This document shows positions 3,428 through 60,115 of a DNA stretch of 64,000 bases, piece by piece. The notes beneath the pieces were generated by a model. The model ran no database searches. It saw nothing but the letters and a program-made list of their open reading frames with translations, and was not told where the DNA came from. Source of the stretch: Candidatus Woesebacteria bacterium (GTDB lineage: Bacteria; Patescibacteriota; Microgenomatia; UBA8517); assembly GCA_016432365.1 (NCBI GenBank), contig CP066686.1, positions 273,771 to 337,770 of the forward strand, in the 5' to 3' direction. Made by a program: the position numbers and the translations under genes. Every line of letters starts with the position of its first letter. Within the stretch, counting starts at the first letter, position 1.

Positions 3428-4884
3428 TCACAGGCTTTAAGTGCGCTAATTGAGATATAGCTAATATTTTCCGGTTTATAGTATCGTTTTTCTTCCACAA
3501 AGAACTTATCCAGCCCCGCCAAGTTTCCATCTCGGGCAACAAAATAGACAGGAATAGGGCTTGTTAGACAACTCAGGTTTAATACAGATCGGTCGAGATT
3601 TCTCGAGTCGATGTAAGTGGGCTTTACCCAGGCCGAATTATTAAAATATGCAAATACCGCGCTTTCGGGGTTACCTGCATCAATCCGGACCCCGGCAATT
3701 ATTTTTTTATCTTTCCCTTTTTGATTCAAATAATCAACCACCTCCGGAATGCCGTAGCCCGATGTCCACCCGGTTAGATATTCGGATTTTTGTGAAAATA
3801 CTGTCATCTTGTCCATGACATTGAAATATGTAATAGGGGAAATAACTAGGAGGTAGGTAATCATGATCGTGGGTATTGTCGAAACACTTCCAATCAAAAT
3901 CGCATGTGCTTTCCTAAAGTTAAAAAGGGTGTATGCGCAAAAGACGGAGATAAGTGGAAAAAAGGCGGATAAATATCTAGGGTTAAGCGACTTGCCCGAA
4001 AATAAGACAAGGATAAAACCTGTCAAAAAAAAGGTTGGGAGAATTCTATCCTTTCTCTTTAATAAAAAATATATTCCACAAATTGACAATATAAAAACAA
4101 AAGGGGTTAAATAAAAAAAAGATATATTGACGGCAGTTGAAAAATTTCTTATCCACAAAGAAAACGGAAAACTTAACAGTTCTGGAATAGATAGCATAAA
4201 CCGGTTATTGGTGTTCAATGAGGTCCAGAATATTTTTTGAAAAAAAAGTGGGGAGACGATAATCAGACTGGAAATAGCAGACAAGGCGAATTCTTTAAAA
4301 TGTTTTTTGTAAATCAAAATTAAACTCACCGAAATTAAAAAAACAAATGCTGAAAGTTTTATAAAGATACCTATACCCAAGATGAGTCCAAGACAAACCG
4401 CGTATTTAGTTTTTTTGGTTTCAAGTATTCTTAGTAGAAAATAAAAACTCCAGATGCCACACCCGGCGATTGCCGATTCCATTAATGCTTGGCGATCAAA
4501 AAAGGCGAAAAGAGGAACAATAATGTAAACAATCGAAGATAAACGCGCAAGCCTTTCATCTCCTAAGTTTTTCGCGATTTTATAAATTCCGGCCAATGTT
4601 AAAAATCCAAACATAACGGATACAATCCTGCCCGCCAAAAGAGGCGAATTAAAAATGTTTTCAAATACTCCAAAAATCCAAATAAGGAGTGGAGGCTTGG
4701 CATCATATAGCGAATAAAATAATCCAGCACTGGTATAGAGAGATTTCCATCCCCAATCCAAATAAATTGCTTCGTCGTTAAAAATTGGGAGTTTGGTTAA
4801 GTTAACTATTCTCGACAAAAAATATATTACGGAAAGCGTAGCTAAGGAATGATTGTGAATAAACTGTGTGATTGTTTTTTTCAT
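3424..4884 (-). CDS. GT-C glycosyltransferase family 39 (ArnT/PMT-like) membrane protein
   Basis: Polytopic membrane protein with an N-terminal DEaiY-type loop (FNDEAIYLDWGW) typical of ArnT/PMT-family glycosyltransferases. Confidence 0.7.
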   Translation of the reverse strand: MKKTITQFIHNHSLATLSVIYFLSRIVNLTKLPIFNDEAIYLDWGWKSLYTSAGLFYSLYDAKPPLLIWIFGVFENIFNSPLLAGRIVSVMFGFLTLAGIYKIAKNLGDERLARLSSIVYIIVPLFAFFDRQALMESAIAGCGIWSFYFLLRILETKKTKYAVCLGLILGIGIFIKLSAFVFLISVSLILIYKKHFKEFALSAISSLIIVSPLFFQKIFWTSLNTNNRFMLSIPELLSFPFSLWIRNFSTAVNISFFYLTPFVFILSICGIYFLLKRKDRILPTFFLTGFILVLFSGKSLNPRYLSAFFPLISVFCAYTLFNFRKAHAILIGSVSTIPTIMITYLLVISPITYFNVMDKMTVFSQKSEYLTGWTSGYGIPEVVDYLNQKGKDKKIIAGVRIDAGNPESAVFAYFNNSAWVKPTYIDSRNLDRSVLNLSCLTSPIPVYFVARDGNLAGLDKFFVEEKRYYKPENISYISISALKACD

Positions 4885-4956
4885 TGAGTAATTTTAACAG
4901 GTTTTAAAAAGCACCTATCTCCTGTTGAGGTTTAGCTTCCGTTCGTTATACAATGA

Positions 4957-7083
4957 TTGGCGATGATAAAAAAGCACAAAAGAAGAATAGATAAACGCGG
5001 TTTCAAATTAAAGATTAAGAGGGACACCTCTTTTTCTATCGCCAAAATTTTCTTTTTTGCACTGGCCGCATTAGTTCTTCTTTCTTTTTCTCGGCAGGGG
5101 GCGATACTACTCAAGTTTAACGATCTTCTTGTAGCTTATTTTTCCTGGTCATCATTTTTTTTACCATTTCTCTTTTTGGCTTTTGCATTTTTGATGTCTA
5201 GGGCCAAGTTTCCTATGGCTCAACCGAATGTTATTGTTGGTGGAATCCTTTTCTTTATTTCCATTGTGACTTTGACCAGAGCTGGGATTTTGGGAAATTC
5301 TGCATGGGATGGAATGAGCGCCTTAATTACAGGAATAGGTGCGGCGATTGTATTAATTGGGACCAGTTTTGTCGGTTTGATAGTCCTTTTTAATACTTCA
5401 ATTGACCAGGTTTTTAAATACGTCGCCGGACTACTTGTGCAGGTCGGGGGTTTTATCAAAAGCCCGGCTCCTATTAAAATTGGTGGCATACAGATGAGTA
5501 AAGGGCCAATGAAAGTTTCCGGTGGGGGTAACTTCAAACAACAGGTAAATATAAATCAAGCAAAACTCCCGATATCGGTAGCTGATAATAAACCCAAAGA
5601 GCCATTGGAGCAGAAACTTGTAAGCAATATTCCCGGCGAAGAAAAAATATGGAAATATCCAAGCTTTGATCTATTGAGTGATGCTGGGATAGGAAAGGCA
5701 GACAGAGGAGATATAAAAGGCAACGCGGCAGTCATCGAAAAAACACTTGAATCTTTTGGGATTACCGCAAGGGTGGTTGAGGTGAATCTTGGTCCGGCGG
5801 TGACTCAGTATGCAATTGAGGTTGCACTCGGTACAAAACTCTCCAAGATTACATCTTTGGAAAGGGATTTGGCTTTGGCTTTGGCAGCCCCAACCGGTAC
5901 AATTAGAATTGAAGCCCCGATCCCAGGAAGATCTTTGGTTGGTATCGAACTGCCAAATAGAGCAGCCGAATTCGTAACACTTAAGAGAATGATGGAGTCG
6001 GACGAGATGCTGGCGGCAAGATCAAAATTGGCGGTATCTTTAGGGTTTGATGTTTCAGGTAAACCCGTTGTCGCCGATATCGCCAGAATGCCCCATGTAC
6101 TTATCGCAGGACAAACCGGAAGCGGTAAATCGGTTTGTATTAACGCCTTTCTTGCATCTATCCTTTTTAGGGCAGCTCCAACCGAAGTAAAACTAATTTT
6201 AGTCGATCCCAAACGAGTTGAGCTAACGGGTTATAACGGTATTCCGCATCTACTTTCTCCCGTTATTGTAGAACCGGAAAAGGTAATATCTGCTCTCAGG
6301 TGGGTTATGGCCGAAATGGATAGAAGATATAAACTTTTTGCAGAAGCCGGGGCTAGGAATATTGACGGTTACAACGAAATGAGCGGGTTTCAAGCCCTGC
6401 CCTTTATTGTTCTTTTTATCGATGAACTTGCTGATATTATGCTTTTCTCTCCTGTTGAAGTCGAAGATGCAATTACTAGGATTGCGCAAATGTCACGAGC
6501 TACAGGAATTCATATGGTTTTGGCCACTCAAAGGCCATCGGTAGATGTCATTACGGGTTTAATTAAAGCTAACGTTCCTTCCCGTATCGCTTTTGCCGTC
6601 GCCTCTCAGGTCGATTCTCGCGTTATTCTTGACACACAAGGAGCAGAGAAACTGCTGGGTAAAGGAGATATGTTATATCTTCCACCCGAACAGGCAAAAC
6701 CACTTAGAATTCAAGGCGCGTTTGTCAACGATAAAGAAATTGAGGCGTTGGTGGCTTTCGTTAAAAACCAGGGAATTCCAACTCAATATACTGACGAAGT
6801 GACAACTATGAGCAAGGCCGGATCAGTTTCGGTTCCGGGGGTCGAAGGTGATACAGACAATTTGTTTAAGGAAGCGGTTAAGGTTGTTTGTCAGTACGAT
6901 AGAGCTTCGGCATCACTTTTGCAAAGAAGGCTGTCAATTGGTTATGCGAGAGCTGCCAGAATTGTAGATCAACTTGAGGCGGCGGGGGTTATCTCTACTT
7001 CAGATGGAAGTAGCAAGCCCAGGGAAGTGCTGGTCCAAAATGCAGATGAGTTTCTTGCCTCGTTTGGGGGTGGCGGTCAATGA
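4957..7083 (+). CDS. ftsK: DNA translocase FtsK/SpoIIIE
   Basis: N-terminal TM segments, Walker A GQTGSGKS, ATQRPS motif and a C-terminal gamma-like domain. Confidence 0.9.
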   Translation: MAMIKKHKRRIDKRGFKLKIKRDTSFSIAKIFFFALAALVLLSFSRQGAILLKFNDLLVAYFSWSSFFLPFLFLAFAFLMSRAKFPMAQPNVIVGGILFFISIVTLTRAGILGNSAWDGMSALITGIGAAIVLIGTSFVGLIVLFNTSIDQVFKYVAGLLVQVGGFIKSPAPIKIGGIQMSKGPMKVSGGGNFKQQVNINQAKLPISVADNKPKEPLEQKLVSNIPGEEKIWKYPSFDLLSDAGIGKADRGDIKGNAAVIEKTLESFGITARVVEVNLGPAVTQYAIEVALGTKLSKITSLERDLALALAAPTGTIRIEAPIPGRSLVGIELPNRAAEFVTLKRMMESDEMLAARSKLAVSLGFDVSGKPVVADIARMPHVLIAGQTGSGKSVCINAFLASILFRAAPTEVKLILVDPKRVELTGYNGIPHLLSPVIVEPEKVISALRWVMAEMDRRYKLFAEAGARNIDGYNEMSGFQALPFIVLFIDELADIMLFSPVEVEDAITRIAQMSRATGIHMVLATQRPSVDVITGLIKANVPSRIAFAVASQVDSRVILDTQGAEKLLGKGDMLYLPPEQAKPLRIQGAFVNDKEIEALVAFVKNQGIPTQYTDEVTTMSKAGSVSVPGVEGDTDNLFKEAVKVVCQYDRASASLLQRRLSIGYARAARIVDQLEAAGVISTSDGSSKPREVLVQNADEFLASFGGGGQ

Positions 7084-7706
7084 ATACGATTGGTCAAATC
7101 ATAAAAAATGCCCGTGTCGTAAAAGAATATTCTTTGAGCCGCCTCGAGGAAATTACAAAAATTAAAAAAGGCTTCATTTCTTCAATTGAAGAGGAAAATT
7201 GGGAGGAACTTCCCCCTTTCCCGACAGTGTTGGGATTCGTGAAGAGTATTGCCGGAGCACTTGAAGTGGACGAAAGAACTGCGGTGGCAACTTTAAAGAG
7301 GGACTATCCGCCAAAAAAATTGAGGATCAATCCTAAACCGGATGTTTCTCGGAAGTTTGTCTGGAGTCCAAAGTTGACTTTTATTATAGGTGTTGGACTT
7401 GTCTTTACAGTAATATTTGGATATTTGGCATTTCAATATACCAGATTTATTTCACCTCCGGCACTAAGTGTAGATAGTCCTGTTGAAGATCAAATTGTGT
7501 CAGGAAATAACGTGTTAGTTTTTGGTAATACGGATGTAGATGTAAAAATAACTGTCAATAATCAGCCGGTATTGGTTGACAATGATGGAAAATTCTCTGT
7601 AAGTATGGAAGTTGTGCCCGATACAAAAGAGATTGTAATTCAAGCAGTTTCAAGATCTGGTAAAATGAATGAAGTAAGGCGAAAGATACTAGTTACTAGT
7701 AACTAG
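7080..7706 (+). CDS. RodZ-like HTH membrane protein
   Basis: N-terminal HTH (XRE-like) segment, single TM and a C-terminal beta-rich domain. Overlaps the ftsK stop codon. Confidence 0.6.
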   Translation: MNTIGQIIKNARVVKEYSLSRLEEITKIKKGFISSIEEENWEELPPFPTVLGFVKSIAGALEVDERTAVATLKRDYPPKKLRINPKPDVSRKFVWSPKLTFIIGVGLVFTVIFGYLAFQYTRFISPPALSVDSPVEDQIVSGNNVLVFGNTDVDVKITVNNQPVLVDNDGKFSVSMEVVPDTKEIVIQAVSRSGKMNEVRRKILVTSN

Positions 7707-12402: not shown

Positions 12403-13083
12403 ATGTCTCAAAAAACAATATTACGTATCGCAGCAGTTGTTTCCGGAATATCAGGAATAATAATTCTTATCGGGGTAATTTACCCGATAGTTGCCTATGA
12501 CGCCACGTATTCCAAAAACTTTCAAAAAATAGTTTCTCCGGTTTCAGATACCGCCGGAAGTGTGGTTGCAGGGGTAAGTACCTCAGGCTCCGTTGATTAT
12601 ACCCAAGCGAGCAATTGGTTTACGGGGGGTGCAGTAAAATCCGACTTCACCAATTCAAAAGTTGAGTATTATACAATTTCTATTCCCAAAATTAAGGTTA
12701 TAGATGCTACGGTAGCAATCGGAGGAGAGGATTTGAGTCAACATATTATTCAATACCCGGGCACAGCACTTCCGGGTAAAAGGGGCAACTCCGTTCTTTT
12801 TGGTCATTCAATTCTTCCCATTTTTTATAACCCCAAAAACTATCTTGCGATTTTTTCGATGCTGCCAACATTGAAAATCGGGGATGAGATCGACGTTGAC
12901 TACGACGGTGTTTCGTATAAATACAGGGTTGAGTCAATGTTTGAGGTCAAACCCACAGATATTCAGGTATTGGATCAGGACTCGAGCGACTCATTTTTAA
13001 CTCTGGTAACTTGTGTACCGCCCGGGGACCCGACTCTTTCCAGGAGGTTGATAGTAAGGGCAAGGGTGGTTCCACCACAATAA
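12403..13083 (+). CDS. sortase family transpeptidase
   Basis: N-terminal TM anchor, LFGH motif and catalytic TLVTC motif. Confidence 0.8.
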   Translation: MSQKTILRIAAVVSGISGIIILIGVIYPIVAYDATYSKNFQKIVSPVSDTAGSVVAGVSTSGSVDYTQASNWFTGGAVKSDFTNSKVEYYTISIPKIKVIDATVAIGGEDLSQHIIQYPGTALPGKRGNSVLFGHSILPIFYNPKNYLAIFSMLPTLKIGDEIDVDYDGVSYKYRVESMFEVKPTDIQVLDQDSSDSFLTLVTCVPPGDPTLSRRLIVRARVVPPQ

Positions 13084-13127
13084 AAAAGAGACTAGATGCT
13101 AGAATCTAGTTACTAGTTTTTAAAAAT

Positions 13128-13514
13128 ATGAAAGTACTTGGAATTGATTATGGAAGAGCAAAAGTGGGATTGGCAATTGGTGTGGGAAGTTTTGCGGAGC
13201 CATATGACGTAATTCGCTATACAGACACAAACTCACTAATTGAAAAAATAGGGGAAATCGTTAAAGTGGAAAAGGTCGAAAAAATCGTCATTGGTTTATC
13301 GGAAAACGAAATAGGGGAAGCAACTAAAAAATTTGCGGAAGCTCTTCACTCTTCACTTTCCCCTCTTCCTTTTGAGTTCTTCGATGAAACTCTTACCTCA
13401 CAGGATGCTCAAAAGTTGAGCAGGGAAGCCGGAATGTCCCGTAAAAAAGCTCGCGGGATGGAAGACGCCTTCGCCGCCTCAATCATGCTTCAGAATTATT
13501 TGGATAGTAATTAA
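13128..13514 (+). CDS. ruvX: Holliday-junction resolvase-like RuvX/YqgF
   Basis: GIDYG..KVGLA N-terminus and a conserved acidic DE..T residue. About 128 aa. Confidence 0.85.
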   Translation: MKVLGIDYGRAKVGLAIGVGSFAEPYDVIRYTDTNSLIEKIGEIVKVEKVEKIVIGLSENEIGEATKKFAEALHSSLSPLPFEFFDETLTSQDAQKLSREAGMSRKKARGMEDAFAASIMLQNYLDSN

Positions 13515-13579
13515 AAAACTTGACCCACCTTCGCCAAGACTTCGTGGGGTCTGTATATTGCTTGTAGAGTCTATGGAAT

Positions 13580-13608
13580 TTGACTTTTAGCCTCAAATAT
13601 GCTACACT
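13580..13608 (+). promoter_or_regulatory. sigma70-like promoter TTGACT-17-TACACT
   Basis: Seen directly. Would give a roughly 350-nt leader before the cold-shock-domain gene. Confidence 0.4.
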
Positions 13609-13965
13609 ATCGGATACTTGAATTCCATATTTTGCTTGGGATTTAGGTTCAATTAGCTCATTAATCCCGTACAGAATTTACTTTGCGCCACGAACTACGT
13701 TTGTGCTCGCAAAGGGCTTTTTTACGGGATCTGCAGTGCTAGTCGCACTTTGACAAAAGAGAGATAAAGAACTCCTTTTAGCCTTGTTCCAGCAATAATT
13801 TCGCATTCGCCTTTTCAGCACTGTTCGTACACGGCTCTTGCCAAATTCTGACGGGACTTCGCTTCTGCATGCTTGAAGGCAGCACTCCGCGCATCTGTTA
13901 CAACTCGTGCTCGGAACGCTGCTCATTCAAGCGGCCTACCAATGGGTAGAAAAGGAGTGAGTGAT

Positions 13966-14583
13966 ATGGAAACCGGAACGGTAAAATGGTTCGACGCCCG
14001 GGAAGGTAAAAAGTTTGGCTTCGTGACGGCTGAGGATGGGAAAGAAATTTTCTTCCATTACAATGACGGAAGACCCATTCAGGTCAATGTCACAAAACGC
14101 CGAGTCGAGTTTTCCGACCAGCCTACGTTTCAGACCAAAGACGGAGTTCGCCGTCTTCGCGACCCCAAGCCCGGAGACAAAATCGTTTTTGTCAGGACGC
14201 AGGGTTACAAGGGTGATAAGGCATCGCCTTGGTCTTTCAAGTCGATCCACGACAAAGCAATCGACCAAATTGCCAAGTTGCCGGAACCGACTGTGTACCG
14301 AGCCCTCGAGACGATGAATAATGTCGGCGACGTGGCCGGTGAACCCAAGGTGTTGTGGGAAGGGTCCGATTTGGAAGCGCTCCTTGCCAAGTACCCAGTA
14401 CCTTCTGGTAGGCAGTCTCCCGGTTCCGATCCACTGATTCCGTATTATTCGGATTCAGACAATATCTTTGAGATTCGGCACTGGTTCGAGAAGAAGGTTG
14501 GAGAAATCTGGGAGCAATGCCCCGATCCACGCTTGCTGTCGGGAGCAAACCGACAGTTCGAACGTATCACCAACCGTTGGTAA
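13966..14583 (+). CDS. cold-shock domain (CspA-like) protein fused to an uncharacterised 140-aa C-terminal domain
   Basis: METGTVKWFD...KGFGFV RNP motifs of the CSD. Strong SD AAAAGGAGTGA 6 nt before the ATG. Locally GC-rich. Confidence 0.75.
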   Translation: METGTVKWFDAREGKKFGFVTAEDGKEIFFHYNDGRPIQVNVTKRRVEFSDQPTFQTKDGVRRLRDPKPGDKIVFVRTQGYKGDKASPWSFKSIHDKAIDQIAKLPEPTVYRALETMNNVGDVAGEPKVLWEGSDLEALLAKYPVPSGRQSPGSDPLIPYYSDSDNIFEIRHWFEKKVGEIWEQCPDPRLLSGANRQFERITNRW

Positions 14584-14698
14584 TCTCTCTTTAGAAATTT
14601 AAGTCTTGGGCCCTGGGGGTATTTTTTTTACTATACCTTCAGGGCCCGGTTTGTTTTATGAGGTTGACTTCCTGTTTCCCATGCTATACTTTAGATAC

Positions 14699-14893
14699 AT
14701 GTTTAAAAGCGTAATTGCACCAATGCAGGCCTGGCTACTTTCTCAGGGAAGATGTGTTGGTTGTGGTACAAATCTTTCTGAAGGCAAAAGTAAAAAAACA
14801 AAGTTTGGTGAACAAATTACATGCAAAAAATGCGGCAGAATCTTTATTAAAAAAGACAATAAATATAGAAGAGCTCTTCTAAACGAGGTTTAA
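14699..14893 (+). CDS. small zinc-ribbon protein (CxxC...CxxC)
   Basis: MFKSV... ORF with CVGCG...CKKCG. Promoter TTGACT-15-TGcTATACT sits directly upstream with its -10 box 8 nt before the ATG (leaderless). Confidence 0.45.
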   Translation: MFKSVIAPMQAWLLSQGRCVGCGTNLSEGKSKKTKFGEQITCKKCGRIFIKKDNKYRRALLNEV

Positions 14894-14918
14894 GTAAAAT
14901 TTGGTATACTAATCTTTC

Positions 14919-15869
14919 ATGAAAAAGTTATTTCTTTTGCTTCTAGTTCTAACTTTGGTTGCGGCAGCATCTATTGTTTGGTTTTACATCAATGTCCAAC
15001 CCGCAGGTACAAATAAAAACTTCAAAAATTTTCTTATCGAAAAAGGTGCTTCGGCTTCCAAAATTGGAACCAACCTAGAACAGGCGGGTTTTATTAAAAA
15101 TGCTTTGGCCTTTAAAATTTATGTAAAGTTCAGCGGACAGGATGGAAAAATTTTTCCCGGTGAATATAGACTTAATAGCGCCATGTCTATGTTCCAAATT
15201 GTCAGTCAACTGACCCGCGGACCGCTTGAGCTTTGGGTAACAATTCCTGAGGGGCTTAGACGAGAGGAGGTTGCTATGAGGTTTACAACAGGACTTGATC
15301 GGGATGCTGTGTTTACCAATGAATTTCTGCAAGCCTCGAAAAACTATGAGGGTAAACTCTTTCCTGACACCTATCTTTTTCCTAAAGACGCGAGCGCTTC
15401 TTCGATTGTAAACAAAATGACCAAGACCTTTGATTCAAAAACTTCAGGTCTTGTTGCGGGACCGGACTTAACATTCAATCAAAGAATTGTCTTGGCCTCA
15501 ATTCTTGAAAGAGAAACTAAAACCAGTGCAGAACGTCCAATTGTCGCCGGGATAATGATGAATAGAATTAGAGCGGGGATGCCTCTACAGGTAGACGCAG
15601 CAGTTCAATACGCTGTTGGAACATCCAAAAACTGGTGGCCTATATTGTCTCGAGATGACCTTCAAATCAATTCGCCTTTTAATACCTATAAATTTTCCGG
15701 ACTTCCCCCTGCCCCGATCGCAAGTCCGGGAATTTCAGCCCTTGAGGCGGCTTTTAGTCCGGCCTCTACCGAGTACTGGTACTATATACACGATAAAAGC
15801 GGAATAATTCATTACGCCGGGACTCTTCAGGAGCACAACGCAAACGTTGCGAAATATTTAGGAAAATGA
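14919..15869 (+). CDS. mltG: endolytic murein transglycosylase MltG (YceG-like)
   Basis: N-terminal TM followed by a YceG-like domain with the conserved acidic catalytic region. Confidence 0.85.
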   Translation: MKKLFLLLLVLTLVAAASIVWFYINVQPAGTNKNFKNFLIEKGASASKIGTNLEQAGFIKNALAFKIYVKFSGQDGKIFPGEYRLNSAMSMFQIVSQLTRGPLELWVTIPEGLRREEVAMRFTTGLDRDAVFTNEFLQASKNYEGKLFPDTYLFPKDASASSIVNKMTKTFDSKTSGLVAGPDLTFNQRIVLASILERETKTSAERPIVAGIMMNRIRAGMPLQVDAAVQYAVGTSKNWWPILSRDDLQINSPFNTYKFSGLPPAPIASPGISALEAAFSPASTEYWYYIHDKSGIIHYAGTLQEHNANVAKYLGK

Positions 15870-16118
15870 AGCTCTCAAACCTGACGGTCGGAGTATCTTC
15901 TCCCTAACTTCGTCGGGAGTGGAATCCCTTCGAAGCGGAACATTTTCGCTTATCCGCGGGCTAACGCCCGGGGTATTTGCGAAGGGGGATAAACCATATA
16001 TTTCCCCCTTGACCCTGCCACTACACTTACTTGCTCCCAAATACTACGTGTTTGCGTCGCAAGAGCGTGAGTGCGTGGTCTGCGCCCCAGCCAGAAACCT
16101 TGCAGTTCTAACTGGGGC

Positions 16119-16146
16119 TTGACATGAGGCTAAATACGGCTATAAT
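16119..16146 (+). promoter_or_regulatory. consensus promoter TTGACA-16-TATAAT for rpoBC
   Basis: Seen directly about 90 nt upstream of the rpoB ATG. Confidence 0.5.
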
Positions 16147-16234
16147 CCTCCCTAGGCGTACATGAATAGGTACGCTCGTCTCGCTTCGAATCTGCGGGCC
16201 TTTAGTGTTTAAAAATATAAAAATACCCACAAAA

Positions 16235-19200
16235 ATGACGTCAAAAAATATTCGCCGCAATTTCGGCAAGGATGAAAAAAACCTACCGATAATCAACCTA
16301 TCTGAAGTACAAACAGAAAGTTGGAAATTATTTTTGGGCGAGGGTATTAAAGAAGAGCTGATTCAAGTTTCCCCAATTGACGATTTTACAGGTAAAAATT
16401 GGCAACTCTCTCTTGGTGATCACTCCTTAGGTGCTCCGACAGTTTCTCCAATGACAGCCCAGAAAAAAGGAATCACTTATGCATGTCCTTTAAAAATCCG
16501 AGCTACCCTTGTAAATAAAAGAACAGGTAAAGAAGTAACCCAAGATGTGTTTTTGGGTGATATTCCTCAGATGACAACCCGTGGTACGTTTATAGTTAAC
16601 GGAATAGAACGTGCCGTTATCAATCAGATTGTAAGGTCCTCAGGAGCTTATTTTTCGGGCGAACTTGATCCATCAAGCGGCAGGGTGCTTTATAAGGCGG
16701 AGATTAGACCCTTACACGGCAGCTGGCTTGAGTTTGAAGTTACCAGAGGAGACTTGATTTACGCGAGAATTGACCGCAGGAGAAAAGTTTTAGCTACAGT
16801 ATTTTTGAGAGCTATAGGAGTCGAATCTGATCAAGACATTACCAACGCCTTTGAAGCGATGGATAAGAATCCGGATCATAAATATATTGCGGCAACACTT
16901 GCAAAAGATTCAACAAAGACCAGAGAAGAAGCTTTAATTGAGGTTTATAGAAAAATGAGACCCGGTGAACCCACAGTTTTGGAAAATGCTGAGGCTCTTT
17001 TCCAAACACTGTTTACAGACGGTAGAAGATATGATTTAGGAAAAGTTGGTAGATTTAAAATAAACAAGCGCTTGGGAGTTAACCTTCCAAACGACAAATC
17101 TACTTGGGTTCTTACCAAACAAGATGTAGTAGCTGCAATAAATTATCTTATCGGGCTTCAAAATGGAGTAGGAAAACTTGATGATATTGACCATTTGAGT
17201 AACCGAAGACTCAGGCGTGTCGGAGAGCTTGTGGCAGTAAACGCTTTCCGTGTCGGTCTTTTAAGACTCGAAAGATCGGTCAAAGAAAAGATGTCTTTGA
17301 TTTCACCCGACGATAAGCCCCTTCCCGCGAATCTTATTAATGCCCGTCCTTTGATAGCTTCACTTAACGAGTTTTTCAGAAGCAACCAGCTTTCAACAAT
17401 TTTAGATGACACGAATCCTTTGAGCGAGGTAGACAATCTTAGGCGTGTTTCCGTTCTTGGAACAGGTGGAATTAATCGTGAGCGCGCCAGCTTCTCTATT
17501 CGTGATGTCAACGCCTCACAATACGGCCGAATTGACCCGGTAAGATCACCTGAAGGACCAAACATCGGACTTGTTACTTACCTTGCTCTTTACGCCAAAG
17601 TTGACGAATTTGGTTTTATTCAAGCCCCGTATAGAAAAGTAGAGAAAGTGGGTAAAAAAGTAAAAGTAACAGACGAAGTTGTGTATCTTACTGCGGACGA
17701 TGAAGAAGATAAATATATAACTCACTCAGGAGTAAGTGTTGATAAAGATGGTTTTATCACAGATAGCAGAGTTCCGTTAAGATACATGGGTAAGTTTATT
17801 GAAGGCGCAGCGGAACTTGTTGATTATATTGACGTCACTCCAAGAGAGGTAGTCGGAGCCTCAGCCTCACTAATTCCTTTCTTGGCAAATGACGAGGGAA
17901 ACCGCGCCCTTATGGGAAGTAACATGCAATGTCAGAGCGTCCCGCTAGTTAACCCCGAGTCCCCAATTGTCGGAACAGGAATGGAAAGGACAATTTCTGA
18001 AGGTATGCAAAGAGTTATCCGCGCGAAACATGCCGGAGTTGTTGAATACATTGACGGTGAAAAGGTAATCGTTAAACTGGATAAAAAAGCTGAAACAGAT
18101 ACGACAGTTGATATTGAAGACACCGAAATTATCGATGGAGGCAAGAAAGAAGTCTACCATTTAACCAAATTTAAACGTACAGCCCACTCCACTGCATATA
18201 ATCAAATCTCCCGAGCTGTCCCTGATCAAAGAGTTGAGGTCGGAGATTTGTTGGTTGACGGTCCTGCAAGCCAGGATGGTGAGCTTGGACTTGGCCGCAA
18301 TCTTGTTGTCGCTTACGCCAACTTTGGTGGTTATGGTTTTGAGGACGCCATATTAATTTCAGAAAGACTTGTTAAAGAAGATTTGCTGACTTCAATTCAC
18401 ATCGAAGAATATGAGGCAGAGGTCGTTGATACAAAACTTGGTCCCGAAGAGATTACAAACGATATTCCTAATGTTTCTGAATCCGAACTGGCCAATCTGG
18501 CCGGAGATGGAATAGTAATGATTGGGGCGCAAGTTGGGCCGAATGACATTTTGGTCGGTAAAATAGCTCCCAAGGGTGAAACAGAACTTACTTCAGAAGA
18601 AAGACTTCTTAGAGCAATTTTTGGTGAGAAGGCCCGCGAAGTGCGAGATACCTCTCTCCGTGTTCCCCATGGCGAAAAAGGAATAGTGGTTGATGTCCAA
18701 ACACTTGATCGTGATAAAGGCGACGAGCTTGGGCCGGGGGTAATACAAAAAGTAATAGTCAGGGTTGCTCAAATCAGAAAAATTACAGTTGGAGATAAGG
18801 TGGCCGGACGCCATGGTAACAAAGGAGTTGTTGCCAAAATGATGCCTGTTGCAGACATGCCCCATCTTGCCGACGGAACTCCCGTCGATGTAGTTATTTC
18901 TCCTCTTTCTGTTATTTCCCGTATGAACCTTGGTCAGTTGATGGAGACACATCTTGGTTGGGCTTTGTACAAAAAAGGTGAAAAAGCAGCCCTTCCCGTT
19001 TTTGACAAAATTGGCGGGGACGCGATAGCCAAGGAATTGGAAAGCGCAGGTCTTGCGGTAAACGGTAAGTCACGTCTCTATGACGGTAGGACAGGTGAGG
19101 CTTTTAAGGAAGATACGGTAGTTGGAGTTGGATACATAATGAAGCTTATCCACATGGTGGAGGACAAGACACACGCCCGTTCAACCGGTCCATACTCGCT

Positions 19201-38178: not shown

Positions 38179-38862
38179 TTACTTGTTGGAAATGGCGATG
38201 TTGTTGCCGAAAACTTTCTTGAAAGCTTCAACAACGTTGTCTACAATCGACATGTGATTGTCGTCGAGTTCAGTCCAACTGAAGGCGTTTGCAATCTCGA
38301 CGCGCGCCTCGTAAGGCTGTATTGAAACTTGTGTGACGCCCGGGATCTGCATAACGATGCGGACAAATTCTCCGCCGCCATCAATGCCGACCTTGCGTAG
38401 ATACTCAAGGCTGGAAATCCGAAGTGGACGCTGGAAAGTCTCATAGCGTGTATTCGAGATTTCAAAGTTGGTGGCGAAACCCCGAAGCCGATCGTTTGGA
38501 TAAGTCTCAATGACAAGTCTTTTCCGGGGATGTAGCTCGTCATACCTTGCTTGAAATGCCTTTTTGACAATCTGGTCGATCTTTTCGTTCCAGAGCGTTC
38601 GACGTCCGAAGGAATCTTTCTCCTTCAGGTAGATCGCAACTTCATATGGTTCAACAAAAATATGGTCAACCCCATCGATCTGGCGCAGTTCCTGAACCAT
38701 CTCGGCTACGATACGGTCATGGTCGCGAAGAGCTTCGAGGTGCAAACTTCGAGCCGAACCATGGGACGTATAGAGCGAGATGTTTTGCTTGCCGATTTCC
38801 ACATTAGTTGAGAAAGTTCTCCCCAACGCGTGGTGCACACGAACATTGAATATCAGTTTCAT
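38179..38862 (-). CDS. hypothetical 228-aa protein with internal tandem duplication (two domains of about 110 aa), inserted on the opposite strand between rplO and secY
   Basis: SD GGAGAAAG before MKLIFNV.... Own promoter and terminator. Locally about 48-50% GC. Repeats aligned by eye (IFVEPYEVAIYL / VSIQPYEARVEI and others). Confidence 0.6.
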   Translation of the reverse strand: MKLIFNVRVHHALGRTFSTNVEIGKQNISLYTSHGSARSLHLEALRDHDRIVAEMVQELRQIDGVDHIFVEPYEVAIYLKEKDSFGRRTLWNEKIDQIVKKAFQARYDELHPRKRLVIETYPNDRLRGFATNFEISNTRYETFQRPLRISSLEYLRKVGIDGGGEFVRIVMQIPGVTQVSIQPYEARVEIANAFSWTELDDNHMSIVDNVVEAFKKVFGNNIAISNK

Positions 38863-38945
38863 AATCTTTCTCCGATTTCTCATCATCATCAGAATAGAAT
38901 TTCCGAAGCCAAAACCCGCAATTTCAACGTGCAAAACCGAACCGC

Positions 38946-38974
38946 ATTCTATAACAACCACACATCAAAGTCAA
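38946..38974 (-). promoter_or_regulatory. promoter TTGACT-17-TAGAAT (minus strand) for the inserted 228-aa gene
   Basis: Reverse complement read directly from the sequence. Confidence 0.45.
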
Positions 38975-48264: not shown

Positions 48265-48335
48265 CGGGGTGTAGTTTACCGGTAGAATGGGCGCATGGGG
48301 TGCGTCCGGACTGAGTTCAATTCTCAGCACCCCGA
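48265..48335 (+). tRNA. tRNA-Pro (anticodon GGG), 71 nt, CCA not encoded
   Basis: Hand-folded cloverleaf. 7-bp acceptor stem with C1:G72, U8, D-loop ACCGGUA, anticodon stem GGCGC/GCGUC with loop AUGGGGU (U33, G37), 4-nt variable loop, T-arm CUGAG-UUCAAUU-CUCAG, discriminator A. Confidence 0.6.
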
Positions 48336-48337
48336 CT

Positions 48338-51885: not shown

Positions 51886-52215
51886 TTAAACCAGCTCAGG
51901 TTTGAAATAGTCGTCGGTGTGTGGAAAAGTGTATCCTGCCCACTCATCGGACGCTGTTTCCAAGGATGCCGAAAATGGCAACCAACCAACTCTTGTGTCG
52001 CCCATCACGATATCCATAACTCTGGACGTTCCCGGGTTGTTGTTTAACCAAAAGGTCAGCCTCATTTCTACCAAAGCCCCTGCCTCGTGGTGTTTTGGAT
52101 CGACCTTTCGCAAGAACCTCATTGGGTCCTCGATGCCTCTTGAAAGAAGCACCCGTACGAAAGCAGCCTGGGCAGCACCAACACTTGCGGTAATCTCTAT
52201 CGCTATCGCTGACAT
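51886..52215 (-). CDS. hypothetical 109-aa protein, GC-rich with SD
   Basis: About 50% GC. AAGAGGAG SD before the ATG. No motif recognised. Confidence 0.45.
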   Translation of the reverse strand: MSAIAIEITASVGAAQAAFVRVLLSRGIEDPMRFLRKVDPKHHEAGALVEMRLTFWLNNNPGTSRVMDIVMGDTRVGWLPFSASLETASDEWAGYTFPHTDDYFKPELV

Positions 52216-52385
52216 TGTAAAACTCCTCTTCCCGTCTCGGGAAATTGTGAGACTCGTCTCGAGTCTAGGGTGTGCGAGTGGCGTCGATTTCAGCCAAACT
52301 TAGGCAGTATAGCACAATCAGCCTCAAAAGTCAATAATTATGGGGTACGATTGAAACCATATTTTGGATATGTTATATTGGCGTT

Positions 52386-54446: not shown

Positions 54447-54542
54447 TCATTTTACTTGACCCCAGTCACAATTTCGCATTCGCCTTTTTAATTCTATTCG
54501 AATACGGCTTATGCCAAATTATAACGGGGCACGGCAATTCAC

Positions 54543-54571
54543 TTGACAATAATTGATATTTGCCGTATTCT
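54543..54571 (+). promoter_or_regulatory. promoter TTGACA-17-TATTCT for hup; -10 box 10 nt before the ATG
   Basis: Seen directly. Confidence 0.45.
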
Positions 54572-54581
54572 TGACACGAAT

Positions 54582-54857
54582 ATGACAAAAGGTGACTTGA
54601 TTGATCAAGTGGCAAGAAAAGCACATCTTACAAAAAAAGCTGCAGAAGAAGCTGTTGAGGTTTTTCTTAATGAAATCGGACGCATTTTATCTAAAGGCGA
54701 GAAAGTTGTTCTTTCCGGATTTGGAACTTTCAGAGTAATTTCGATGAAAGGTAAAACCGTTAAGATTCCAAAAACAGAAAAAATGGTTACAATTAAATCT
54801 CACAGATCTCCCCGTTTTACTCCAGGAAAGAAACTCAAACGCCAAGTGGCGAGGTAA
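54582..54857 (+). CDS. hup: HU-family DNA-binding protein
   Basis: MTKGDLIDQVA..., the GFGTF beta-arm motif and RSPRF motif. Confidence 0.85.
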   Translation: MTKGDLIDQVARKAHLTKKAAEEAVEVFLNEIGRILSKGEKVVLSGFGTFRVISMKGKTVKIPKTEKMVTIKSHRSPRFTPGKKLKRQVAR

Positions 54858-59562: not shown

Positions 59563-59781
59563 AAAAAATCCCGCATGTGCGGGATTTTTGTACTCTAGAG
59601 AGTAGTAAGCCATTTTCGCTACGCTCAAATGTCTTGGCTTCTCTCTAGTGCACGATACGAAAAACCCCTCCTTATGGAGGGGTAAATCGTACTCTAGAGA
59701 GTAGTAAGCAAATCTTGCTACTCGTTATCCATAAAAAATCCCACGAAAGTGGGATTTTATATACTCTAGAGAGTAGTAAGC
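59563..59781 (-). repeat. three tandem modules of (rnpB 3'-terminal 21-mer GCTTACTACTCTCTAGAGTAC plus intrinsic-terminator hairpin)
   Basis: The antisense 20-mer TACTCTAGAGAGTAGTAAGC occurs identically at 59591-59610, 59690-59709 and 59762-59781. Each copy is flanked by a hairpin of different sequence that conserves the stem (ATCCCGCA/TGCGGGAT; CCCCTCC/GGAGGGG; ATCCCAC/GTGGGAT) next to a T-run. Confidence 0.7.
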
Positions 59782-60115
59782 CAGGTTCTGTTAGGCCCTG
59801 AACAAATTTCAGGGTTTGACGATCATCCATCTAACGCCCTCGAACTTCGGAACGTGGCTCGATTACTCGAGCCGTTGGTAAAGCTCCTGTAACGTTCCTT
59901 TCGGAGGTTGCAGCGGGGAGGATTGCCTCTTTTCACTCGTTTTTCCCTACCTTTAGGGTAAGAAAATCGACATAGTCTCTGTGGCTCTAACTGGCTACAT
60001 TCCTTGCGGAACATATCCCAGGCTTACGCCTGGCACCCTGCTTTTCTGCTGCCTGGACTTTCCTCCCCTCATAGCCTTGCGGCGACGTGGGGCGATCATC
60101 CTTTCTCTAGAGTGA
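59762..60115 (-). ncRNA. rnpB: RNase P RNA (bacterial type A)
   Basis: The reverse complement carries GAGGGGAGGAAAGUCCAGGC (P4 5' strand, CR-I) and AGCAGGGUGCCAGGCGUAAGCCUGGG (the P10-P12 region). It also has AGGUAGGG.AAAA.GAGUGAAAAG (CR-II-like) and a P18 hairpin followed by ACAGAACCUGGCUUAC (CR-V, P4 3' strand). P1 pairs ACUCUAGAGA with UCUCUAGAGU. Confidence 0.8.

Follow-up and report, generated by a model that had tools for sequence, protein, structure and literature searches.

We analysed a stretch of 64,000 nt from contig CP066686.1 of a Candidatus Woesebacteria bacterium, hereafter the window, in which one open reading frame (ORF) joins a cold-shock domain (CSD) to a second domain, here called X. 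The gene, CSD-X, has its ATG at 13966 and its TAA at 14581-14583, and it is the sole ORF noted between ruvX (13128-13514) and a 64-aa zinc-ribbon gene (14699-14893). Its neighbours in the window, all on the forward strand, are an FtsA-like gene, a sortase gene, ruvX, the zinc-ribbon gene, yceG/mltG and rpoB. The encoded protein is 100% identical to an NCBI protein from a metagenome-assembled genome that is annotated as 'cold shock domain-containing protein [Candidatus Woesebacteria bacterium]'. The gene and the parts of its product are as follows.

13966..14583, + strand: CSD-X gene, 205 codons plus TAA
13966..14232, + strand: long cold-shock domain, residues 1-89 (Pfam CSD, AlphaFold, Foldseek and alignment conservation)
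13972-14067, + strand: CSD strands 1-3 with KKFGFV and IFFHY, residues 3-34 (Pfam CSD match)
14068-14163, + strand: family-specific insertion in the CSD, residues ~35-66 (AlphaFold/Foldseek and alignment)
14233..14580, + strand: X domain, residues 90-205 (AlphaFold and X profile), with the signature YRV ... WEG ... DPLxPY ... WFE ... W..C.DPR

Two modules in one protein

The CSD runs into X without a stop in the window ORF, as the earlier note on this DNA had stated, no frameshift separates the two, and the fusion is retained in 25 full-length relatives of 46-84% identity, which align end to end and have conserved positions in both halves. The N-terminal module matches the Pfam CSD family (PF00313) over residues 3-34 with 37.4 bits against a cut-off of 27 (E 2.4e-9). 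Its ribonucleoprotein (RNP) motifs, previously given as KGFGFV and FFHY, read KKFGFV (RNP1-type, residues 15-20) and IFFHY (RNP2-type, residues 28-32), and G18, F19, F30 and H31 are conserved in at least 90% of the CSD-X family. An AlphaFold2 model of the full protein, built on the alignment of relatives, reached a predicted local distance difference test score (pLDDT) of 90.7 and contains a five-stranded antiparallel beta-barrel. A Foldseek search of the PDB returned CspA, CspB, CspE and YB-1 at probability 1.0 with target-normalised template modelling (TM) scores of about 0.8 (up to 0.84), and the alignments to Csp and Y-box structures extend over about 91 columns, insertion included. Both tools place the complete barrel over residues 1 to ~90, with ~30 residues added between strands 3 and 4; this insertion forms two beta-hairpins with the consensus DGxxIxxGKxxPEFSG....LRDP, and strands 4-5 terminate in an invariant ASPW. 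Matches from NCBIfam, PHROGs, PADLOC and PDB sequences were confined to the N-terminal stretch and were essentially all of Csp type or Y-box type. By analogy with the Csp RNA chaperones, this module, with its RNP1- and RNP2-type aromatics intact, most likely binds single-stranded RNA.

Because the complete barrel reaches residue ~90, the tail is about 115 aa in length and not 140 aa as the earlier note had it. Folded alone by AlphaFold, X gave a model (pLDDT 87) of three helices and a four-stranded sheet that matched no known fold, and the model depicts X as an independently folding alpha+beta domain. The broad signature of X consists of YRV, WEG, WFE and W..C.DPR, R112 is invariant, and the conserved residues (R112, W131, W173, E175, D187 and R189) are aromatic or charged. 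The view that the tail belongs to no recognisable family held in every search performed: X has no match in Pfam, NCBIfam, PHROGs or PADLOC, its Foldseek search of viral models was empty at E ≤0.001, and scanning 44 diverse X domains one by one against Pfam gave nothing recurrent. X is thus without a detectable relative among described families or solved structures. In the literature, nothing was found on CSD fusions in Patescibacteria.

The only signal from PDB sequences was a set of marginal homeodomain matches of the X profile (tandem engrailed, E 3e-4; Nkx2.5, E 6e-3), which raises the alternative that CSD-X is a DNA-binding transcription factor with X as a helix-turn-helix of homeodomain-like or winged-helix type. 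A weak TrmB match to X (E 0.03-0.04) and the precedent of Y-box proteins for a CSD in DNA binding point the same way. However, the homeodomain matches lie at the edge of significance and all belong to one family, and the alignment pairs WFEKK of X with the WFQNRR recognition helix, whereas two independent AlphaFold runs (pLDDT 87-91) predict a beta-hairpin at this position. The models of X do not display the three-helix bundle with a recognition helix that is expected of such a fold. The homeodomain resemblance is therefore unproven, and we regard a transcription factor as very unlikely.

A search of 1.84 billion protein representatives with the X profile yielded 135 proteins. In the classified set of about 152 proteins, made up of X-profile matches and close relatives, a CSD-like N-terminus followed by X is the dominant architecture (at least 95 proteins), while X alone was found in 17, X with acidic or zinc-ribbon tails in 15, a nucleotidyltransferase with X in one and two X domains in several. 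The CSD and X are separable modules. Nine proteins (P0114, P0116, P0123, P0130, P0132, P0133, P0138, P0140 and P0159) carry X at the N-terminus, then LTP.T.LEREIDAENRR.FPGDY and Cys-rich double-zinc-ribbon or acidic tails; X follows the nucleotidyltransferase in P0115, whose neighbourhood contained uninformative hypothetical genes, and X occurs in tandem after a CSD-like domain in P0065, P0069, P0103, P0125 and P0157. Giant proteins with Big_13 immunoglobulin-like repeats were rejected as relatives, as mostly a profile stretch of ~24 residues was matched repeatedly: in P0054, P0061, P0071 and P0148 solely profile positions 84-107 recur, and in P0028, which has one longer stretch (22-107), the high score is the sum of 13 stretches. 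A cluster look-up of ten X-family proteins returned neither names nor accessions. Among GTDB species-representative genomes a single CSD-X locus was found, which was already known (L011 / L002, CAZUOM010000001.1). This genome is titled 'uncultured Gammaproteobacteria bacterium', while the other placed members are Microgenomates- or Woesebacteria-like; the title may be a taxonomic mislabel or reflect a binning error.

Promoter, leader and ribosome-binding region

The sequence upstream of CSD-X, up to and including the Shine-Dalgarno (SD) site, is divided as follows.

13570..13608, + strand: promoter, with the upstream block TCTATGGAA, a -35 box TTGACT at 13580-13585, a 17-nt spacer and an extended -10 element TG-C-TACACT at 13600-13608
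13615..13965, + strand: predicted 5' leader of about 351 nt, its start placed from the -10 box
13615..13662, + strand: 5'-proximal leader segment (ATCGGATACTTGAATTC...GCTCATTAAT), common to the orthologous leaders of L031 and L029 (alignment; blastn 92-96% identity)
13663..13752, + strand: insert 1, ~90 nt, with a terminator-like hairpin inside, absent from the leaders of L031, L033 and L014
13782..13869, + strand: insert 2, a copy of an ~85-nt partly palindromic repeat (nhmmer), absent from the orthologous leaders of L031 and L033
13871..13932, + strand: conserved leader hairpin H1 (GCTTGAAGGCAGC...GCTGCTCATTCAAGC), -31 kcal/mol, z -4.6
13934..13949, + strand: small hairpin immediately 5' of the SD (minimum free energy fold), at the same position as H2 of relatives (CCTG..CAGG)
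13951..13965, + strand: SD site and conserved purine box AAAGGAGTGAGTGAT, with exact GAGTGAGTGA at 13955-13964

The TTGACT-17-TACACT promoter that had been proposed about 350 nt upstream and the strong SD were both recovered. A consensus scan found the TACACT hexamer at 13603-13608 with TG before it, the promoter aligns in relatives, the arrangement TTGAC..TGnTAnnnT occurs at the equivalent place in 15/16 related loci, and the upstream block TCTATGGAA has the family consensus CCYATART. The promoter of the zinc-ribbon gene, TTGACT...TGCTATACT (14664-14690), is conserved in L027 and L031 and closely resembles that of CSD-X, TTGACT...TGCTACACT; the likeness suggests a strong promoter type that is common in this lineage.

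The predicted leaders of relatives range from 61 to 221 nt, and that of the window attains about 351 nt because two window-specific inserts enlarge it relative to those of L031 and L033. The leader together with the start region (13615-13995) folds at -124.5 kcal/mol with a z-score of -4.5 against shuffles, and a second leader gave z -5.2. RNAalifold on six leaders of the window type recovered H1 with 20 pairs and H2 with 7 bp, with a few compensatory changes. A second leader type exists in the family, in which another hairpin, TAGGTGGCT...AGCCACCTA, takes the same position.

Downstream of the hairpins lies the SD, with AAAGGAG 8 nt 5' of the ATG. The exact 10-mer GAGTGAGTGA is fused to the SD in 24/34 loci, with a single site per locus (as two overlapping copies in five of them), and is located within about 30 nt 5' of the ATG of the CSD gene wherever the start is known; in the 64-kb window the 10-mer and the exact 11-mer GGAGTGAGTGA each occur once. 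We take AAAGGAG-(UGA)-GUGAU to be an extended SD, complementary to the 3' end of 16S rRNA; the window contains no 16S gene for comparison with the box. The nucleotide sequences of the promoter, the leader hairpins and the box are conserved even where the encoded proteins share only ~50-60% identity, and the region is therefore a concrete candidate for a cis-regulatory RNA.

A related alternative is that the leader is an RNA thermosensor of the cspA type and the gene a classical cold-shock-inducible csp. Long, conserved and structured, with a box right 5' of the SD and the SD region predicted to be mostly paired, the leader is formally like the cspA 5' untranslated region (UTR) (PMC9947658). 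However, when positions 12500-16500 were scanned against Rfam 15 at E ≤1, no csp leader family was detected and the only two matches were chance ones to eukaryotic families; in sequence, the leader resembles none of the known csp leaders. Equilibrium folding of 16 leaders at 10, 25 and 37 C also gave no consistent trend in the probability that the SD is unpaired, though the cspA switch is kinetic and could escape such a calculation. In addition, the terminator-like hairpin of the leader is not conserved, and several samples are named as groundwater wells (Hainich 'Hain' records); well sites of this kind are stably cold, and cold shock may be irrelevant there. We consider a thermosensor doubtful.

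The terminator-like hairpin, which the earlier note had compared to csp leaders, is real (13664-13731; CTTTGCG..CGCAAAG, then GGC and T6; -28.9 kcal/mol, z -5.0) but belongs to insert 1; it was inserted in the window only and is no conserved element of regulation. Its T-run pairs with an upstream A-rich arm, and the terminator scan did not score the hairpin as a + strand terminator. A 14-nt perfect inverted repeat, TCCCGTAAAAAAGC / GCTTTTTTACGGGA (13437-13450 and 13716-13729), ties the ruvX coding sequence to the leader hairpin, and the outer stem of this hairpin repeats the TCCCGTAAAAAAGC / GCTTTTTTACGGGA motif in both orientations. The ~85-nt repeat of insert 2 (AATTTCGCATTCGCC...ACGGCT..TGCCAAATT) was found in three copies with about 75% column identity across two genomes: at 13782-13869, at 54456-54545 in the gap that separates a 66-aa ORF from the HU gene (54582-54857), and on the reverse strand of L014 (2630-2725) between the gyrB stop and the CSD-X promoter, with nhmmer E-values of 3e-24, 1e-26 and 5e-8, respectively. 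It could be an element resembling repetitive extragenic palindromes (REP) or miniature inverted-repeat transposable elements (MITE), or a regulatory site. Neither insert is a feature of the family. Two ORFs in the leader, an antisense one of 82 aa (13678-13926) and an upstream one of 26 codons (13869-13949), were rejected as genes, being in or overlapping window-specific sequence and not conserved.

Inheritance and genomic contexts of CSD-X

Downstream of the stop codon, one further feature is needed for comparison with the relatives.

14607..14659, + strand: intrinsic-terminator-like hairpin (GGGCCCTGGGGGTAT / ATACCTTCAGGGCCC) followed by GGTTTGTTTTAT; -29.4 kcal/mol, z -6.2 (hairpin 14607-14648)

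The order sortase-ruvX-[gene]-zinc-ribbon-yceG is shared by the window, L031, L033 and L029, with a CSD gene at the same position in all four. The same junction occurs in L031 (TGGTAATCTCTCTTTA) and, more diverged, in L033 (TGGTAATTTTTCTCTC). Identity of CSD-X to the window is 55% in L031 and 59% in L033, which tracks that of RuvX (55% and 63%) and YceG (54%). In L029, positions 4440-5173 comprise the same promoter, leader and GAGTGAGTGA box, followed by a 162-aa protein with a homologous long CSD (hhalign probability 97.4%, E 1e-11) and a Cys/His-rich, acidic tail (CDCGH...CMEAGCHCGDE) in place of X; this variant remained a singleton in a homologue search of a 5.8-billion-protein database. 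A stand-alone Csp, which the earlier note had suggested looking for at this locus, was found in none of the relatives examined.

Judged by its neighbours (sortase 95%, YceG 79% and zinc-ribbon protein 89% identical), the closest relative is L027, which lacks the promoter, leader and ORF. Homology to the window is lost at about 13529-13546 and returns at 14580, the final base ahead of the stop codon, and tblastn found no remnant of X in L027 or in L029. L027 has ruvX directly followed by the GGGCCC hairpin, nearly identical in sequence, and the zinc-ribbon gene, so the hairpin that the earlier note took to close the CSD-X unit, though real, is the ancestral ruvX terminator, which now stands 3' of CSD-X.

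Compared with L027 alone, the window resembles the product of a 1.03-1.05-kb insertion, and one alternative holds that CSD-X is a recently acquired or mobile GC-rich cassette inserted between ruvX and its terminator. What L027 lacks is exactly the promoter, leader and ORF, and the conserved unit of the family begins about 10 nt 5' of the -35 box and ends with the stop codon. The composition stands out as the earlier note had described: the ORF has 51.8% GC and a GC content at third codon positions (GC3) of 0.59, against 0.37 (standard deviation 0.05, maximum 0.53) in 61 other ORFs of the window. The family was also found in at least six unrelated contexts, including positions beside toxin-antitoxin pairs and beside rve-type or IS200-type transposase genes. 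The same site is, however, filled in L031, L033 and L029 with the neighbour-like divergence given above, and the elevated GC3 is common to all CSD-X relatives irrespective of host composition, that is, a family trait that carries no donor signature. The unit itself (promoter, leader and ORF only) contains no integrase, transposase or other mobility gene, and no meaningful terminal inverted repeats or target duplication at the boundaries set against L027; no relatives were found in IMG/VR viral contigs. A 9-nt inverted repeat at the unit edges (CCAAGACTT/AAGTCTTGG) does not qualify as a terminal repeat, since the right arm is host sequence that L027 also has. We thus judge a recent cassette unlikely, and the GC-rich island stands as composition and not as recent acquisition: CSD-X is most likely an old gene that this clade has passed on vertically beside ruvX. 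Since L031 and L033 hold CSD-X at the same site with divergence like that of its neighbours, the parsimonious reading of the sequences is ancestral presence with loss by deletion in L027. The empty site of L027 (4409-4587) has, between its blocks of homology, 24 nt (TAAGAATTTCGTACAACTTCAAGA) with a loose resemblance to the 3' end of CSD-X; this remainder would be compatible with a deletion scar.

Elsewhere, CSD-X has been found in unrelated settings: flanked by secY and adk, adjacent to rplL-rplJ, downstream of the gene for trigger factor, and as a neighbour of toxin-antitoxin pairs or of transposase genes. The unit has therefore moved over deeper time. In L005 (4049-5668) it lies between secY and adk in the ribosomal-protein (spc) operon with a divergent DUF5678 gene, and a DUF5678 gene is also near CSD-X in L032. 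In L021 (about 1285-1440) and L023 (about 1053-1180), the CSD-X promoter is immediately preceded by the 3' end of an rve-type transposase gene (recognised by eye from WYN..RPH), and in L002 a gene for an IS200-type Y1 transposase (6637-7332) lies 1 kb downstream of CSD-X.

Some relatives stand beside PIN, HicB-like, YoeB and HEPN-nucleotidyltransferase genes, and the N-terminal module is hit by PADLOC CSD_V (E 4e-8) and NCBIfam retron_eff_Se72 (E 2e-4), in line with the alternative of a defence or toxin effector related to the CSD effectors of retrons (Se72 / type V). Both matches are nevertheless confined to the generic CSD, the Se72 model (NF038236) scoring 21.2 bits against a cut-off of 82, and the tail has no PADLOC match. 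Among the called neighbours in the window there is no reverse transcriptase; housekeeping genes (sortase, ruvX, yceG and rpoB) and the zinc-ribbon gene are found instead, and the inheritance of CSD-X beside ruvX appears stable. An effector of this kind is extremely improbable.

As to the rest of the window, GC3 values of 0.50-0.53 also occur in three ORF-like stretches (51917-52303, +; 38179-38961, -; 207-626, -), the first of which has a translation that does not look protein-like and no Rfam match. Only two RNA genes were detected in the window, namely a class A RNase P RNA (59761-60111, -, 105.9 bits) and tRNA-Pro(GGG) (48265-48336, +).

A proposed mechanism and its relation to known systems

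Taken together, we consider it moderately likely that CSD-X is a two-module nucleic-acid-binding protein, a predicted RNA binder, that is controlled post-transcriptionally via its leader. Its own strong extended -10 promoter would drive transcription, and translation would probably be set through the conserved structured leader, in which H1, the second small hairpin and an A-rich stretch precede the GAGUGAGUGA box merged with the SD. This box could be an extended complement of the 16S rRNA 3' end or, alternatively, a site for autoregulation by the protein, possibly as for CspA. X may serve as an auxiliary module that makes binding tighter or more specific, to judge from other CSD proteins with a second module.

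Four observations weigh against this proposal. The Pfam CSD match spans only half of the profile (positions 2-32 of 66), because the insertion splits off the second half of the domain. The leader covariation rests on six sequences and is statistically weak, with an unfavourable covariation term in RNAalifold (+1.7). The predicted accessibility of the SD ranges widely among loci (0.07-0.72) without a temperature trend, and the persistently high GC3 has no account in a model of two modules and a leader.

A bolder and rather improbable version is that X is an undescribed nucleic-acid- or nucleotide-binding fold, and that the long CSD, X and the hairpin-GAGUGAGUGA leader constitute an autoregulatory RNA-protein circuit. 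In that case, binding of the protein to its own leader would set translation, in a system represented so far by metagenomic sequences only and with the Microgenomates as the sole lineage identified.

The two-module reading has some bearing beyond this locus. CSD proteins are the archetypal bacterial RNA chaperones and, to our knowledge, nearly all characterised bacterial ones are single-domain proteins of about 70 aa. The family described here is rare and known from metagenomes only, with about 150 sequence clusters in which a modified CSD is mostly joined to a compact X domain; X has no Pfam model, is found by itself in some proteins and is replaced by a Cys/His-rich tail in another. Genomes of the candidate phyla radiation (CPR) are small, have few known regulators and commonly encode uncharacterised lineage-specific domains, and the finding is unsurprising in kind. 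Should X turn out to be a new module for binding RNA, the repertoire of bacterial RNA-binding proteins would gain a building block, and there would be a handle on post-transcriptional control in the CPR.

Among known systems, the models of the retron Se72 and type V CSD effectors detect the same CSD, but the score is far below the cut-off, the reverse transcriptase and non-coding RNA context of a retron is absent, and the tails are unrelated. M. tuberculosis CspB (PDB 9xw3), with a chain of 134 aa, is another bacterial CSD protein above the canonical 70 aa; the match is limited to the CSD (query residues 3-54, E 0.035), and it has no counterpart of X. CSD-X shares with E. coli CspA and CspE and B. 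subtilis CspB a CSD of the oligonucleotide/oligosaccharide-binding (OB) fold with RNP1- and RNP2-type aromatics, but differs from them in having 205 aa instead of about 70, a ~30-residue insertion between strands 3 and 4 and an additional 115-aa domain. In cold-inducible csp genes, the 5' UTR is long and regulatory, and the product acts back on its own gene (PMC9947658). CSD-X resembles cspA in having its own promoter, a long structured leader (predicted in CSD-X) and a box immediately 5' of the SD (PMC9947658 for cspA), whereas its leader is without sequence or Rfam similarity to csp leaders.

A parallel in architectural logic, an N-terminal CSD followed by a second binding module, is provided by Lin28 and AtGRP2, which carry CCHC zinc knuckles, and by YB-1. 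The zinc knuckles of Lin28 and AtGRP2 and the C-terminal domain of Y-box proteins add affinity or specificity. The AtGRP2 architecture has been described (PMC11602973), and the CSDs of Lin28 and YB-1 are structural matches of that of CSD-X in Foldseek. X has no zinc knuckle and no Cys/His cluster, homology is limited to the CSD, and the CSD-X lineage is bacterial; the L029 orthologue, by contrast, carries a Cys/His-rich tail instead of X and in this respect recalls the zinc-knuckle CSD proteins.

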